A DNA stretch of 35,994 nucleotides, taken from contig JAISGC010000057.1 of the NCBI GenBank assembly GCA_031263295.1, forward strand, positions 1-35,994, given 5' to 3'. This stretch comes from Rickettsiales bacterium. Its GTDB lineage: Bacteria; Pseudomonadota; Alphaproteobacteria; Rs-D84. This document shows positions 4,661-9,528 of this stretch, in pieces (the first letter of the stretch is position 1; each line of letters starts with the position of its first letter). The notes under the pieces were generated by a model. It saw only the letters and a list, made by a program, of their open reading frames with translations. It searched no databases and had not been told where the DNA came from. The position numbers and the translations under genes were made by a program.

Positions 4661-7600
4661 CTATATTTTTGTTATTCCAATTTCAAGCTTGTGGCCCTCG
4701 ATTTCCACACTAAACTGCGACGCGGGTTCGTAGGCTATCTCCGTCGCCAAGGCGTCCGCCGCGACCCGTGCTTCGTGAGCGCGGATCGCATCGACAATCG
4801 GCGCATCGCCAGAAACCGACAACTTTATCCTGTCCGAGACATCGAGATCCGCGGTTTTCCGCGAATCTTGGATAAAGCGCAACGCGTCGTTGGCGAGACC
4901 CTCGGCCGCCAATTCCGGCGTTATTTCGGTGTCCAAAACCACGACCGCCGTATTGTCTGGCAAGGCCGCGCCCGCTATGCCGTCCCGAACCCGAAGGCGG
5001 GTTTCGTATTCTTCGGGCAACAGGCCGAAGGCCGCCGGGTCGAAGTCTGGCCTTTTCGACGCGGCGATTATTTCTTTAAGTTTGCCGCCCAGCCGCGCGC
5101 CGATTTTCGGCGTCAAAAGGTAGACGAACTTTTCGGCGACCGCATCGGCATTCTCGCTGTGCCGGATTTCTTTTACATTCAGTTCGGAGGCGATTATCGA
5201 ATCAAACGCCGCATCAGCCGAGCCCGCGATTTCCAAGGACCGGAGCGGAAGCCGATTGCGCAGTCCGTGCTTTTCGCGCAGCTGTTTTCCAAGCGCTATG
5301 ACCGCGCGCGCGCGGTCCATTTTGTCTTCAAGCCCTCTGTCCTGCGGAAGCTTCGACACATCCGGCCAGTCTTCGAGATGCACGGACTCGCGGCCGGTCA
5401 AGGCCCTGAATATAAAATCCGCCGCCATCGGGAGATAGGGCGCCAAGGCCCTGCAAAGCGTCGTCAGAATCGTCCACAAGGTATCGAACGCGGCCGCATC
5501 CTTGCCGTCCCAGAATCTCGCGCGCGAGCGGCGGACATACCAGTTGTTGAGGATTTCCATAAAGTCTGCAAAAAGCGGTGCCGCGTCGTTTATCCGGTTC
5601 GCGTCCAAAAGCGCGGCCGCGCGCCCGACAAGGGTGCGCAGCTTCGACAGGATATAGCGGTCGAGAATATCGCCGCCATCCGCGGTTTGTTTGGCCTTGA
5701 CCGATTCCGCGTTGGCGTAAAGCGTGAAGAAATAAAACGCGTTCCAAAGCGGCGTCAGAACCTGGCCCGCGGCCTTGGATATATCCGCGCCGTCTTTCGA
5801 TATGGAAAGGTTGCCGCCGGATAAAATCGGCGAACTCATCAGGAACCAGCGCAGGCTGTCCGAGCCGAGGGTTTCGATAATTTCCATCGGGTCTGGGTAA
5901 TTCCTCTTGGATTTCGATAATTTCTTGCCCTCGGAATCCACGACCACTCCGTGGCAGACCGCCGACTTGAACGGAACATTGTCGAAAAGCGCGGTCGACA
6001 ATATCATCATATTATAGAACCAGCCGCGCGTTTGGGCTATGTATTCGACGATAAAATCCGACGGGAAATGATTGTCGAACCAGTCTTTGTTCTCGAACGG
6101 ATAATGCGCCGCCGCAAAGGGCATCGCGCCGCTCTCGAACCAGCAGTCCAGGACCTCCGGTATGCGGCGCATCGTCGATTTTCCGGTCGGATCGTCGGGA
6201 TTCGGACGCGTGAGGGCGTCTATCGCGGGCCGGTGAAAATCGGTAATTTCGACGCCGAAATCCCGCTCCAATTCCGCAACCGAGCCGTAGACATCGACGC
6301 GCGGATAGTTTGCATCGTCGGATTTCCAGACCGGTATCGGCGCGCCCCAAAAGCGCGACCGCGAAATCGCCCAGGGCCGCGCGCCTTCAAGCCATTTGCC
6401 CATTTGCCCGTCGCGGATGTGGCCCGGAATCCAGTCTATCTTTTGATTCAATTCGACCATTCGTCCTCGGATTTTCGGAACATCCACATACCAGCTGTTC
6501 AGCGGCATATTGATAAGCGGAACGCCCGTGCGCCAGCAATGCGGATACATATGCCTGTAAAGTTCCTTCTTTATCAAAACCCCGGCTTTTTTAAGATCTT
6601 CCACAATCGGAGCGATTGCGTCGAACACAAGCATTCCCGCGTATGGCCCGACCTGTTTCGTAAAGCGGCCCTTGCCGTCGACCGGCGCGCGCCAACTGAT
6701 TCCCCACTTGTCCATAACCGCAAGGTCTTCCTCGCCGAACGGCGCAATATGCACGATGCCCGTTCCGTCCTCGGTCGTTATGTAATCGGCCGAGACGACC
6801 CTGAACGCGCCCGGAGTATCCGGGAAGAAAGGAAACAGAGGCCGGTAAGTTTTTCCGACCAGTTCAGACCCCTTTATATTGCGGACGAATGCAGCATTCG
6901 CAAGCTGCTGCTTATATCGTTCGCGAGCCGCATCGCCGATTATATAAAGGCGGCCGTCCTCCTCCATAACCGCGTATTCTATGTCTTGCCCCACGCAAAG
7001 CGCGAAGTTCGACACCAATGTCCAGGGCGTGGTCGTCCAGGCCAGGATGCTCGCGGGCTTGCCGTCGATTTTATCGTCCAGCGCGAATGCGATTGTGACG
7101 GCCGTGTCGTCGCGCTCGCGATAGCAGTCGTCCTGGCGCGTTTCGGAATTGGATACTGTCGATTCCGCCCCGTATGAATACCATATCGAATAGGTTCCCT
7201 CGTAAATAAGGCCCTTGTCGTAAAGCTGCTTGAAGGCCCAAATCACGCTTTCGGTGTATTTCGCGTCCATCGTGCTGTAAGTCTTATCGAACTCTATCCA
7301 GCGCCCCATTCGCGTCAATATCTTCTCCCATTCCGAAACATACATTTGGACCCGGGTCCGGCAGACGGCGTTAAAGTCCTTTATGCCGAACTTTTCGATT
7401 TCGTTCTTGCCCGATATTTTAAGGTATTTCTCGGCGTCCAATTCCGCGGGCAGGCCGTGGCAGTCCCAGCCGATATTGCGCGGGACAAGCTTGCCGCGCA
7501 TAGTCTCGTATCGCGGTTTCAAGTCTTTTACATACGATGTCAAAATATGGCCGTAGTGCGGCAGTCCGTTTCCGAACGCGGGTCCGTCGTAGAAGACATA

Positions 7601-7729
7601 TTCCGGCGCGCCCGAGCGTCGTTCCAACGATTTCTTGAAGATGTTTTCTGTCTCCCAGAACGCCAGCATTTCGCGCTCCAACTTCGGAAAGTCCGGCTTT
7701 GCGGGGACATCTGGATAATATTTTGCCAT
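4661..7729 (-). CDS. ileS: isoleucyl-tRNA synthetase, type 2 (eukaryote-like)
   Basis: GLPHYGH (HIGH), GWDCHGLP, WTTTPWTL, WAISRSRFWG, QTRGWFY, KLSKS; type-2 C-terminus without Zn finger; start at MAKYYP. Confidence 0.96.
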   Translation of the reverse strand: MAKYYPDVPAKPDFPKLEREMLAFWETENIFKKSLERRSGAPEYVFYDGPAFGNGLPHYGHILTSYVKDLKPRYETMRGKLVPRNIGWDCHGLPAELDAEKYLKISGKNEIEKFGIKDFNAVCRTRVQMYVSEWEKILTRMGRWIEFDKTYSTMDAKYTESVIWAFKQLYDKGLIYEGTYSIWYSYGAESTVSNSETRQDDCYRERDDTAVTIAFALDDKIDGKPASILAWTTTPWTLVSNFALCVGQDIEYAVMEEDGRLYIIGDAARERYKQQLANAAFVRNIKGSELVGKTYRPLFPFFPDTPGAFRVVSADYITTEDGTGIVHIAPFGEEDLAVMDKWGISWRAPVDGKGRFTKQVGPYAGMLVFDAIAPIVEDLKKAGVLIKKELYRHMYPHCWRTGVPLINMPLNSWYVDVPKIRGRMVELNQKIDWIPGHIRDGQMGKWLEGARPWAISRSRFWGAPIPVWKSDDANYPRVDVYGSVAELERDFGVEITDFHRPAIDALTRPNPDDPTGKSTMRRIPEVLDCWFESGAMPFAAAHYPFENKDWFDNHFPSDFIVEYIAQTRGWFYNMMILSTALFDNVPFKSAVCHGVVVDSEGKKLSKSKRNYPDPMEIIETLGSDSLRWFLMSSPILSGGNLSISKDGADISKAAGQVLTPLWNAFYFFTLYANAESVKAKQTADGGDILDRYILSKLRTLVGRAAALLDANRINDAAPLFADFMEILNNWYVRRSRARFWDGKDAAAFDTLWTILTTLCRALAPYLPMAADFIFRALTGRESVHLEDWPDVSKLPQDRGLEDKMDRARAVIALGKQLREKHGLRNRLPLRSLEIAGSADAAFDSIIASELNVKEIRHSENADAVAEKFVYLLTPKIGARLGGKLKEIIAASKRPDFDPAAFGLLPEEYETRLRVRDGIAGAALPDNTAVVVLDTEITPELAAEGLANDALRFIQDSRKTADLDVSDRIKLSVSGDAPIVDAIRAHEARVAADALATEIAYEPASQFSVEIEGHKLEIGITKI

Positions 7730-7746
7730 AATTTTCTGCCTTTTAT

Positions 7747-7769
7747 AAAAAACGGGCGCCCATGCGCCC
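7747..7769 (-). terminator. attenuator terminator hairpin upstream of ileS
   Basis: minus strand GGGCGC-ATGG-GCGCCC-G-TTTTTT, 17 nt before the ileS ATG. Confidence 0.7.
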
Positions 7770-7795
7770 CGGACCACGCCAAAGCGCCGCGCCGT

Positions 7796-7828
7796 TTATT
7801 CGATAATGATTATCTCTTTGTTAAACAT
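7796..7828 (-). CDS. ileS leader peptide MFNKEIIIIE (4 tandem Ile codons)
   Basis: ATG TTT AAC AAA GAG ATA ATC ATT ATC GAA TAA; TATAAT 6 nt upstream; followed by terminator and ileS. Confidence 0.8.
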   Translation of the reverse strand: MFNKEIIIIE

Positions 7829-7887
7829 GCGCCGATTATAGAACAACTTTTGATGGATTTCCAGTTTTTTTATTATAGAATTATCGG

Positions 7888-9528
7888 GTGAAAAATTACG
7901 ATGTCATTATTATCGGGGGCGGGCATGCGGGCGTAGAGGCGGCGGCCGCCGCCGCGAGGCGAGGGGCGCACGCGCTGCTTTTGACCAAGGCGGCGGCGGA
8001 CCTTGGGGCGATGAGTTGCAACCCTTCCATAGGCGGGCCGGGCAAATCCCAGATGGTCGGCGAGATGGCCGCACTCGGCGGAGTGATGCCGCGGGCCGCC
8101 GATGCCGCGGGCATTCAATTTCGGATGCTGAACGCAACGCACGGGCCCGCGACCCAGGCCCTTCGCGCGCAGATTGATCGCGATTTATATCGGGCCGCCG
8201 TCTCACGAATCACGAGCCACGAACCACGAATCACGATTGAATATGAATCTGTCGAAACACTCGATTTGGAAAACAAAATCGTCAATGGGAAATATCGGGC
8301 CAAGGCGCTGGTTTTGACAACGGGGACTTTTCTGAACGGCCTCGCGACCAGGGGCGCGGAACGCATCCCATCGGGGCGGCTGATGGACGATGGGAACTAT
8401 CAGGATGCGACGGCCGGAATATCGGAAATACTCAAAAAGGCCGGTTTTTCGATGCTGCGATTAAAGACCGGAACGCCCGCGCGATTGTTTGCCGATTCAA
8501 TCAATTTCGCCGTTTGCGAGGAGCAAAAGGGGGATGAGCCGCACGAATGGTTTAGTTTAGGGGTTAGGGGCCAGGGGTTAGGGGTTAGTTGTTTCATAAC
8601 TCACACAACGGAGGAGACGCACGATATTATAAGGGACAATATTGCGGCGGCGCCGATGTATAACGGGGGCATAGAGGGCATCGGGCCGCGATATTGCCCA
8701 AGCATCGAGGACAAGGTTATGAAGTTCCCCGAGCACCTGTCGCACCATATTTTCTTGGAGCCCGAGACGCGGGCGGGCGATGTGATTTATCCGAACGGCC
8801 TGTCGACTTCGTTCGGCGCCGATATTCAGGACCGGTTTTTGCGGACGATTCCGGGACTCGAAAATGTGCGCGTCGCCCGATACGGATACGCGATTGAATA
8901 TGACGCCATCGATGCGCGGGCTTTGCGGCCGTCGTTGGAGGCGCGGATGCTGCCCGGTCTTTTTTTCGCGGGCCAGATAAACGGGACATCGGGATACGAA
9001 GAGGCGGCCGCGCAGGGGCTGGTCGCCGGGGCAAATGCCGCTGCCTTCGCACTGGGCGGCGCGCCGCTCGAACTCGACCGGACCAATTCTATGATCGGCG
9101 TTATGATTGACGACATTACGACCCTCGGCGTCGACGAGCCTTATAGAATGTTCACCAGCCGCGCCGAATATAGATTGCAATTGCGGAGCGACAATGCCAT
9201 TTTTCGTATTGGACCGCGGGCGGTAGAACTTGGATTGCTGGCGCGGGATGTTTATGAACAAATGAGCAATGAGCAATTAGCAACCCGCAATGAGGTGGAC
9301 AAACTTTACGCCGGTTATATTGCGCGGCAGAATGCGCAGATTGAAAAAATGCGGCGGGACAAATTGGTCAAAATCCCGGTCGGATTGGACTTTTCCGCCC
9401 TGTCGGGATTGACCAACGAACTTGTGCAAAAGCTCGCGGCGGCGCGGCCCGACAATCTCGCCGCCGCGATGCGCATTCCCGGAATGACGCCCGCCGCCGC
9501 GATGGTAATCTTGTCCGCGATTAAATAG
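7888..9528 (+). CDS. mnmG: tRNA uridine 5-carboxymethylaminomethyl modification enzyme MnmG (GidA), shortened
   Basis: GGGHAGVEAA, MSCNPSIGG, RLKTGTPAR, GPRYCPSIEDK, AGQINGTSGYEEAAAQG, EPYRMFTSRAEYRL. Confidence 0.96.
   Translation: MKNYDVIIIGGGHAGVEAAAAAARRGAHALLLTKAAADLGAMSCNPSIGGPGKSQMVGEMAALGGVMPRAADAAGIQFRMLNATHGPATQALRAQIDRDLYRAAVSRITSHEPRITIEYESVETLDLENKIVNGKYRAKALVLTTGTFLNGLATRGAERIPSGRLMDDGNYQDATAGISEILKKAGFSMLRLKTGTPARLFADSINFAVCEEQKGDEPHEWFSLGVRGQGLGVSCFITHTTEETHDIIRDNIAAAPMYNGGIEGIGPRYCPSIEDKVMKFPEHLSHHIFLEPETRAGDVIYPNGLSTSFGADIQDRFLRTIPGLENVRVARYGYAIEYDAIDARALRPSLEARMLPGLFFAGQINGTSGYEEAAAQGLVAGANAAAFALGGAPLELDRTNSMIGVMIDDITTLGVDEPYRMFTSRAEYRLQLRSDNAIFRIGPRAVELGLLARDVYEQMSNEQLATRNEVDKLYAGYIARQNAQIEKMRRDKLVKIPVGLDFSALSGLTNELVQKLAAARPDNLAAAMRIPGMTPAAAMVILSAIK
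8203..8237 (+). repeat. intragenic heptamer array (TCACGAA x5, imperfect)
   Basis: tcacgaa tcacgag ccacgaa ccacgaa tcacgat, read as SRITSHEPRIT in mnmG. Confidence 0.85.
8557..8588 (+). repeat. intragenic heptamer array (TTAGGGG x4.5, imperfect)
   Basis: ttagggg ttagggg ccagggg ttagggg ttag, read as LGVRGQGLGVS in mnmG. Confidence 0.85.
9261..9295 (+). repeat. intragenic heptamer array (AATGAGC x5, degenerate)
   Basis: aatgagc aatgagc aattagc aacccgc aatgagg, read as MSNEQLATRNE in mnmG. Confidence 0.75.

Follow-up and report, generated by a model that had tools for sequence, protein, structure and literature searches.

An isoleucine-codon leader with the organisation of a transcription attenuator precedes ileS across a family of alphaproteobacteria

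The window examined here is a stretch of 35,994 nucleotides (positions 1 to 35,994 of contig JAISGC010000057.1, assembly GCA_031263295.1) from a Rickettsiales bacterium of the GTDB lineage Pseudomonadota; Alphaproteobacteria; Rs-D84. It carries ileS, the gene for isoleucine-tRNA ligase (IleRS), behind a compact leader that contains a short upstream open reading frame (uORF) with a run of isoleucine codons, followed by alternative RNA helices and an intrinsic terminator. An original prediction, made from the letters of the sequence, had proposed that this leader governs ileS by attenuation. Here we define the parts of the leader, document its distribution and its constraint as a reading frame among relatives, and model the effect of ribosome position on its folding. 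In our reading the element is most probably a leader-peptide attenuator of the classical ribosome-mediated type, acting on transcription of ileS in response to the charging of tRNA-Ile.

Organisation of the ileS leader

The element fills a 159-nt gap between two divergent genes, mnmG, which starts at 7888 on the plus strand, and ileS, whose ATG lies at 7729 on the minus strand; positions below refer to the minus strand unless stated. All of the elements named in the original prediction were found where it had placed them on this strand. The presumed regulated gene, ileS (4661..7729), encodes a 1022-residue product that matches TIGR00392 with 772 bits (cut-off 621.4) and also resembles the type-2 enzymes MupA and MupB (620 and 599 bits, under the cut-offs of those models), and its earlier assignment as a type-2 isoleucine-tRNA ligase therefore holds. 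A -10 hexamer, TATAAT (7835..7840), stands 6 nt (CGGCGC) before the ATG of the uORF and is preceded across a 17-nt spacer by a -35-like hexamer, TGGAAA (7858..7863), located by a consensus scan in which the pair scores 10 of 12 matches. The uORF (7796..7828; ATG 7828-7826, stop 7798-7796) reads ATG TTT AAC AAA GAG ATA ATC ATT ATC GAA TAA and would encode MFNKEIIIIE, its four consecutive isoleucine codons (ATA ATC ATT ATC, 7802..7813) forming the putative sensor. About 45 nt separate the uORF stop codon from the terminator.

Within this interval the minimum-free-energy fold of the leader forms a 25-nt hairpin, here termed hairpin A (7770..7794; CGGCGCGGCGC-UUUG-GCGUGGUCCG), which begins 2 nt past the uORF stop and is directly followed by the terminator. 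The intrinsic terminator (7747..7769; GGGCGC-AUGG-GCGCCC, G, U6) was recovered by sequence, by folding and by a terminator scan; its arms (7769-7764 and 7759-7754) enclose the loop ATGG in a stem of six base pairs, all G-C, and its T6 tract (7752-7747) ends 17 nt before the ileS ATG. A third helix, the predicted antiterminator (7764..7787), pairs GCGCUUUGG (7787-7779) with CCGGGGCGC (7772-7764) and is mutually exclusive with both hairpin A and the terminator. The original prediction had recognised this helix as a pairing of GCGCTTT (7787-7781) with GGGGCGC (7770-7764); the pairing exists but extends to nine base pairs, including three G-U pairs, rather than seven. The layout proposed there lacked hairpin A altogether. 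With this anti-antiterminator (1:2) present beside the antiterminator (2:3) and the terminator (3:4), the classical arrangement is complete. Between the T-tract and ileS lies a Shine-Dalgarno-like AAGG (7739..7742), read from the sequence 9 nt before the ileS ATG; AAGG or AAGGA motifs also precede ileS in relatives (seen by eye, uncounted).

Taken by itself this one locus is not statistically striking. In a 600-nt stretch the consensus scan returned three promoter-like sites against 0.6 expected in shuffled sequence, and two terminator-like sites against 1.2 expected, so that the terminator scan is not significant by itself. It is because of its conservation, and not because of the single locus, that the arrangement exceeds chance.

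The divergent neighbour mnmG (7888..9528, plus strand; TIGR00136, 651 bits) lies outside the element and, being divergent, leaves no upstream gene for the terminator to end. The neighbouring genes are mnmG and nth.

Conservation of the leader and its association with ileS

Among the first 30 ileS loci of relatives, inspected by eye, a mini-ORF with an isoleucine run, a G+C-rich hairpin and a U-tract were visible in 13, all belonging to the window's own family, even at IleRS identities of 43-48%. A covariance model (R1) built from 12 aligned leaders (alignment A1) and spanning 89 positions matched 141 of 151 genomes of this family, in 15 of its 18 genera and in 125 of the 133 genomes of high quality, with one match per genome apart from two weak second matches. 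The count of 141 is a lower bound, as R1 misses a divergent version in one genome (G011, locus L025), in which the mini-ORF MTTIIIF is followed by a hairpin and a U7 tract abutting ileS. In an order-wide sample R1 matched 116 of 121 family members, and the five other families, represented by 29 genomes, gave no match. Searched against the 400-nt regions preceding ileS in a further 93 alphaproteobacterial families (a tally that includes one unpublished genome, G211, whose sequence is left out) it found nothing better than E = 0.16. The conserved isoleucine-rich uORFs that the original prediction suggested seeking before orthologous ileS genes are thus a feature of the family at large.

A separate scan of named records with a pattern for the conserved core listed 80 loci of at least 119 stretches, and R1 recognises 48 of those listed. 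Among these listed matches, the N-terminus of IleRS lies within 250 nt in 45 of the 48 R1-positive loci and in none of the 32 R1-negative ones; 11 of the 48 come from Candidatus Enterousia sp., an alphaproteobacterial genus of uncertain placement, and 34 are labelled as Alphaproteobacteria, proteobacterium or Rickettsiales metagenome-assembled genomes from rumen, colon, faeces or termite gut. The alphaproteobacterial host that had been presumed from the sequence agrees with these labels; a CPR (Patescibacteria) affiliation, considered in view of the small genomes, was rejected on the same grounds. The only sequencing run listed for the window is a DNA run of a termite-gut metagenome, possibly the one from which the assembly was made, and no RNA run is listed for the locus. 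Three of the 48 listed loci (L116, L138, L141) carry Muribaculaceae or Paludibacteraceae labels. Of these, L138 and L141 match the family loci L055 and L059 without a difference along their entire length, and L116 has 284 of 474 60-mers in common with an Enterousia record. These Bacteroidales labels are probably the result of mis-binning or mis-assignment.

The upstream neighbour varies (mnmG in the window, tRNA-Thr in some genomes), and the element stays with ileS. In one genome (G022; locus L074, G022:C1:3089-3900) a P-loop (GxxxxGK) gene of about 186 codons is inserted between attenuator and ileS at positions 181-742 of the locus, and its stop overlaps the ileS ATG (ATGA), which implies that the element there heads a two-gene operon ending in ileS. 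A different variant occurs in a genome of the window's own genus (G002, locus L003): the divergent mnmG, a TATAAT promoter and a Shine-Dalgarno-like AAGGTG are kept, and the uORF, the hairpins and the terminator are gone. To judge by its sequence, this locus is a natural deletion variant.

Constraint on the uORF was assessed from per-column counts in 51 distinct full-length leaders (alignment A2). All 51 have an ATG and an in-frame stop (TAA in 49, TAG in two), at a length of 10 codons in 43, nine in seven and 11 in one. Isoleucine occupies peptide positions 7 and 8 in every leader, position 9 in 48 and position 6 in 45. Codons 7 and 8 show no variation at their first two bases and have T, C or A as the third; the third base of the four isoleucine codons is never G, which would encode methionine, while G does occur at the third bases of codons 2-5. 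Codons 2-5 and codon 10 are free to vary, the last encoding E, K, R or G, and the only two gaps within the uORF are each exactly 3 nt. The frame, the isoleucine run and the pattern of third bases together bear out the claim that this run is maintained as coding sequence. Isoleucine codon usage in the leaders is 94 ATA, 92 ATT and 22 ATC. Sensing of a rare codon through ATA was considered and rejected, since ATA makes up 38.5% of the isoleucine codons in the 19 long ORFs of the window.

The uORF is probably leaderless, as the upstream sequences suggest and as the original prediction held. In 49 distinct upstream regions the best -10-like hexamer most often stands 7 nt before the ATG (19 regions) and stands 6 to 8 nt before it in 28, and a Shine-Dalgarno-like tetramer occurs at the usual site ahead of the uORF in two. 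Many relatives have the -35-like motif CTGGAAAT ahead of the leader. In a few Enterousia genomes the usual promoter is replaced by a tRNA-Thr(CGU) gene ending about 11 nt before the uORF ATG (L019, 1302-1377; L048, 1601-1676; L072 and L078 by eye); there the leader may be co-transcribed with the tRNA and acquire a near-leaderless 5' end after tRNA processing. This upstream tRNA had been considered as a tRNA-Ile before it was identified as tRNA-Thr(CGU).

The genomic setting gives ileS particular relevance. The window's genome is about 1 Mb and those of its relatives 0.5-1.1 Mb. The biosynthetic genes ilvC and ilvD were not found in the window's genome (87.6% complete) and were absent from all five relatives searched (97-100% complete), by models that match 14 of 14 controls. 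The family is probably unable to make isoleucine, and in an organism lacking that synthesis ileS would be a natural place to answer low charging of tRNA-Ile.

Alternative folds, ribosome position and rival explanations

Pairing in the three helices was evaluated on alignment A2, which is fitted to the model, and on A3, a structure-blind MAFFT alignment of 51 leaders, each with 500 shuffles; because the leaders are related to one another, the counts of pairing, covariation and shuffles given here are not probabilities. The terminator that had been noted after the uORF is conserved, being 97.7-99.1% paired across relatives with a U-tract of 6-7, and its hairpin alone averages -10.5 +/- 1.6 kcal/mol in 51 leaders. 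Hairpin A and the terminator taken together are 90.0% paired on either alignment. On A2 they include 10 pairs changed on both sides, a number reached by none of the shuffles; on A3 there are six such pairs against 1.8 expected (one shuffle of 500 reaching this), with a covariation score of 0.158 against 0.130 (none of 500). The antiterminator forms standard pairs in 88.3% of cases on A2 and 90.2% on A3, where slid controls give 30-59% (51-55 leaders). Relative to dinucleotide-shuffled spacers, hairpin A is the more stable (-9.7 against -6.4 kcal/mol; 46 of 51 leaders exceed the shuffle median), and so is antiterminator capture of the terminator 5' arm (-9.4 against -5.65 kcal/mol), for which 47 of 51 exceed the median and 23 of 51 exceed all 20 shuffles.

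The consequences of ribosome position were modelled on a truncated transcript, cut just before the 3' arm of the terminator, along which the leading edge of a ribosome was stepped. For the window's transcript with no ribosome, hairpin A and the antiterminator have the same energy, -13.5 kcal/mol. With the edge at +37 to +40 the antiterminator is the only strong fold, at -13.5 kcal/mol; it weakens to -7.8 kcal/mol at +43 and to -5.3 kcal/mol from +44 onward, which corresponds to a ribosome on the stop codon. The same profile emerges from 51 leaders. The energy that opposes freeing of the terminator 5' arm is about -4.8 kcal/mol without a ribosome or with one stalled early, rises to about -10 kcal/mol when the edge has passed the first base of the stop by 6-11 nt, and falls to about -3 kcal/mol at an edge of +14 or more, with the ribosome on or just past the stop. 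At its peak it equals the terminator hairpin (-10.5 kcal/mol), and the A site then lies on the last isoleucine codon or on codon 10. In this model the succession of values reproduces the three-state logic of classical attenuation. The folding thus predicts, as had been proposed, that a ribosome at the stop weakens the antiterminator and one at the last isoleucine codons favours it. Of the isoleucine codons at which stalling had been proposed to yield read-through, the model with a +12-nt footprint predicts the full effect for approximately the last two, as well as for codon 10, and not for the earlier ones.

The course of events we infer is as follows. The transcription start would coincide with the A of the uORF ATG or lie no more than about 2 nt from it, and a 70S ribosome would load at the 5' end with no need of a Shine-Dalgarno site. 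With Ile-tRNA plentiful, the ribosome would cross the four isoleucine codons to the stop, its edge covering the first bases of GCGCUUUGG, and after its release hairpin A (7794-7770) would fold; with GCGCUUUGG either masked or held in hairpin A, the terminator 5' arm would be free, GGGCGC/GCGCCC-U6 would form, and RNA polymerase would halt 17 nt ahead of ileS. With Ile-tRNA scarce, the ribosome would be slowed in the isoleucine run with its A site on the last of these codons, where its edge would melt the base of hairpin A and leave GCGCUUUGG free to capture the emerging CCGGGGCGC. The terminator 5' arm would thereby be sequestered, polymerase would read through into ileS, and ileS would be translated from its own AAGG site.

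Several observations weigh against attenuation by this switch. When the complete leader is folded at equilibrium with the ribosome-covered bases blocked, the terminator forms in every state (mean P(T) 0.75-0.90 at the +12 offset), so that any switch must operate kinetically, as it does in the textbook cases. The model predicts that stalling on the first isoleucine codon acts no differently from no ribosome, although conservation is highest at codons 7 and 8; either the footprint is slightly longer than modelled or the earlier isoleucine codons delay arrival at the critical position. Covariation in the antiterminator does not exceed that in shuffles (147 of 500 reach its score on A3), and this helix therefore rests on conserved complementary sequence; covariation in hairpin A is modest, and sequence kinship inflates such tests. 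Of the 49 upstream regions, 18 have a best -10 spacing other than 6-8 nt and three have no candidate hexamer. The element is also dispensable, being absent from G002 although its IleRS is 79% identical to that of the window, and G008, G016 and several other genera are likewise without it.

Among other explanations, the one that fares best is that the leader reports general translation capacity or the coupling of transcription to translation, any slow ribosome giving read-through with no specific sensing of isoleucine. The structural logic does depend on the position of the ribosome and not on the identity of the codon beneath it, and codon 10 (E, K, R or G) occupies as favourable a place as the last isoleucine codon when the +12-nt rule is applied. 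Against this stand the retention of isoleucine at positions 7 and 8 (51/51), 9 (48/51) and 6 (45/51) through synonymous third-base changes while the flanking codons vary, and the identity of the regulated gene as the isoleucine-specific synthetase, and we consider such a general sensor improbable. Stalling on the uORF might instead act mainly on translation of ileS, through access to its ribosome-binding site, with the hairpin and U-tract serving as a weak or constitutive terminator. The minimum-free-energy fold does pair the U-tract with the AAAAGG stretch that holds the Shine-Dalgarno-like motif of ileS, and a translational mechanism is documented for leaderless cysteine uORFs (bioRxiv 10.1101/834739). 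That pairing is composed of A-U pairs alone and is weak, whereas an all-G-C stem of 6 bp with U6-7, 98-99% paired and overlapping a conserved alternative helix, is a signature of termination control; there is little reason to expect that translation is the main target.

An untranslated uORF would require that the conserved AUAAUUAUUAUA tract and the hairpins constitute a protein-binding site in RNA or DNA, as in autorepression by IleRS or binding of another factor. The thrS gene of Escherichia coli offers a precedent in which a synthetase autoregulates through its leader RNA. The coding signature, with ATG and stop spaced by 9-11 codons, indels of 3 nt, isoleucine codons fixed at bases 1-2 and no G at their third base, is hard to reconcile with an untranslated RNA or DNA site, and no relevant Rfam family was matched at E <= 10; we give this explanation very slight credence. 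A last possibility is that promoter, mini-ORF and terminator make up a separate small transcript, or act as a fixed insulator, and that ileS is transcribed from elsewhere; the dominance of the terminator in all modelled states at equilibrium, and a TATAA-like string that the alignments of many relatives show after the U-tract, might suggest as much. It is scarcely credible, given that the consensus scan finds no second promoter-like site between terminator and ileS, that the element precedes ileS in 45 of the 48 named R1-positive records among the matches listed and heads the two-gene operon of G022, and that shuffled controls are less stable than the alternative helices.

Other ileS leaders and known attenuation systems

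The window's genome (G000) was scanned for further leader-peptide attenuators, sought as an ATG-initiated ORF of 5-24 codons with at least three identical residues within four, followed by a terminator. This crude scan of 114 contigs, which is blind to GTG and TTG starts and to looser codon clusters, gave 59 candidates, of which the ileS leader alone was convincing; two others (on contigs C3 and C69) were followed up and proved to be artefacts. Paralogous 22-codon ORFs were noted on contigs C40 (minus strand, 4285) and C41 (minus strand, 6331), reading MGSVSSKHQDKYAGRLPRADPA and MGSASSKTRKQSAGFLSGLDPA, each with a TATAAT-like box, a Shine-Dalgarno-like AGGGA or AAGGAA, and a GGCGC-loop-GCGCC terminator with a T7 tract right after the stop; these may be small proteins or small RNAs. 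Elsewhere in the window, at 23400-23600 on the minus strand, two near-identical hairpins of the form GATGCCGGGCCGGGC(G/A)TT with ATTTTT after each are separated by about 95 nt and are probably members of palindromic repeat families.

Beyond the window's family, a second conserved uORF was observed 100-230 nt upstream of ileS in other alphaproteobacterial families with G+C contents of 25-64% (L233, L247, L248, L249, L250, L279, L287 and L292; also L245, L256 and L264). Its peptide ends in ...(I)(I)-R-I-(I/T)-x-P-(A/V)-x-stop, over the core sequence CGAATTAY NNN CCCGG, and a CCCGGC..GCCGGG hairpin contains or adjoins the stop codon; a T-rich tail follows in only some members. Of 93 families, 9 have the R-I-(I/T)-x-P motif on the ileS strand and one has it on the opposite strand. 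The peptide of the window lacks this motif, R1 matches none of the second-class loci, and the two classes have in common only an isoleucine-rich uORF before ileS. Two further loci, L221 (G247) and L206 (G226), carry uORFs with isoleucine runs that are unrelated in sequence to R1: MKYLKINSVIIIKI, followed by CCGGGC..GTCCGG and U7, and MSDIRSISIIISIIIP, after which come a short hairpin and a T-rich tail. In 6 of the 93 families the ileS strand carries a short ORF containing III; the opposite strand does so in one. There thus appear to be distinct architectures, namely the leaderless IIII uORF and terminator of about 89 nt in the Enterousia family, the R-I-(I/T)-x-P class, and lineage-specific uORFs such as those of L221 and L206. 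We put forward tentatively, with somewhat more doubt than conviction, that leader-peptide control of ileS is an essentially undescribed habit across the class, in at least three architectures, filling the role that the T-box has in Firmicutes. Were this so, an isoleucine-auxotrophic Enterousia-family genome of about 1 Mb would retain no isoleucine sensor other than a 70S ribosome loading at the 5' end, and timing would come from tight coupling of transcription to translation with no separate pause site.

A coding sequence that bears on these leaders has been annotated in Caulobacter crescentus. CCNA_03934, an ileS leader CDS 45 nt long and ending 78 nt before ileS, was identified by ribosome profiling (Schrader et al. 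2014, PMC4117421) and is entered with a 5'-PPP end in the 'Leaderless mRNAs' sheet of that paper (supplementary file 2, sheet 4); where the paper takes it up it serves as a negative control, and no mechanism is proposed for it there. As described, it resembles the uORF of the window in being alphaproteobacterial, very short and just upstream of ileS, and differs in having 14 codons instead of 10. It provides a precedent for the predicted leaderless start of the element reported here, and our guess would be that it belongs to the R-I-(I/T)-x-P class. The original prediction had held that isoleucine-codon attenuation of ileS was undescribed. We likewise found no such attenuator in the literature, where older comparative-genomics papers on proteobacterial attenuators may mention one; the Caulobacter annotation nevertheless means that a translated, leaderless ileS leader CDS was already on record (PMC4117421).

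If the proposed function is correct, genome-reduced gut symbionts auxotrophic for isoleucine could gauge the charging of tRNA-Ile with only about 90 nt of RNA, and the compact leaderless design would offer a minimal system for the coupling of a 5'-end-loaded ribosome to RNA polymerase. A likely function is also suggested for the unexplained leader CDS of Caulobacter, an organism in which it is directly testable. The element would be the first clear case we have found of a branched-chain amino acid synthetase under leader-peptide attenuation, and it constitutes a cis-regulatory family in more than 140 species-level genomes that is covered by no Rfam model. Searched at E <= 10 against Rfam 15, the interval 7600-8000 of the window returned three unrelated chance matches only, with none to the curated leader families (Thr, Leu, His, Trp, Phe and others) and none to the T-box covariance model.

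The closest parallels are the classical leaders (trp, his, leu, thr and ilv, and pheST), which share with the window's element an ORF of cognate codons, a terminator, an antiterminator over the 5' arm of that terminator, and an anti-antiterminator. In classical leaders the start is led by a Shine-Dalgarno sequence, whereas here it is apparently leaderless, the amino acid and gene are isoleucine and ileS, the whole switch takes only about 89 nt, and the stop codon lies 2 nt before hairpin A. The pheST operon exemplifies proteobacterial synthetase genes under classical attenuation (PMC1262725). T-box leaders of ileS in Firmicutes and Actinobacteria, as described in the same source, do the same job of raising ileS when tRNA-Ile is uncharged, but bind the tRNA directly through a specifier loop in a leader of about 200 nt, where the window's element spans about 45 nt from stop codon to terminator. 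The polycysteine ORFs of mycobacteria (Canestrari et al., bioRxiv 10.1101/834739) are leaderless sensory uORFs with a run of one codon in which stalling reports supply, much as is proposed here; they respond to cysteine, and their stalled ribosomes unmask a sequestered ribosome-binding site and so act on translation, in contrast to the isoleucine codons and canonical terminator found here. An isoleucine-rich mini-ORF followed by a terminator is likewise reported before ilvB1NC in Mycobacterium tuberculosis (PMC13236596). Those genes are biosynthetic and their host makes isoleucine, whereas here the gene is a synthetase, the host is a probable isoleucine auxotroph, and the antiterminator is clear. 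Viewed against these systems, the element is best seen not as a new kind of system but as a family-wide addition to the textbook mechanism, distinctive in its small size, its apparently leaderless start and its target gene.

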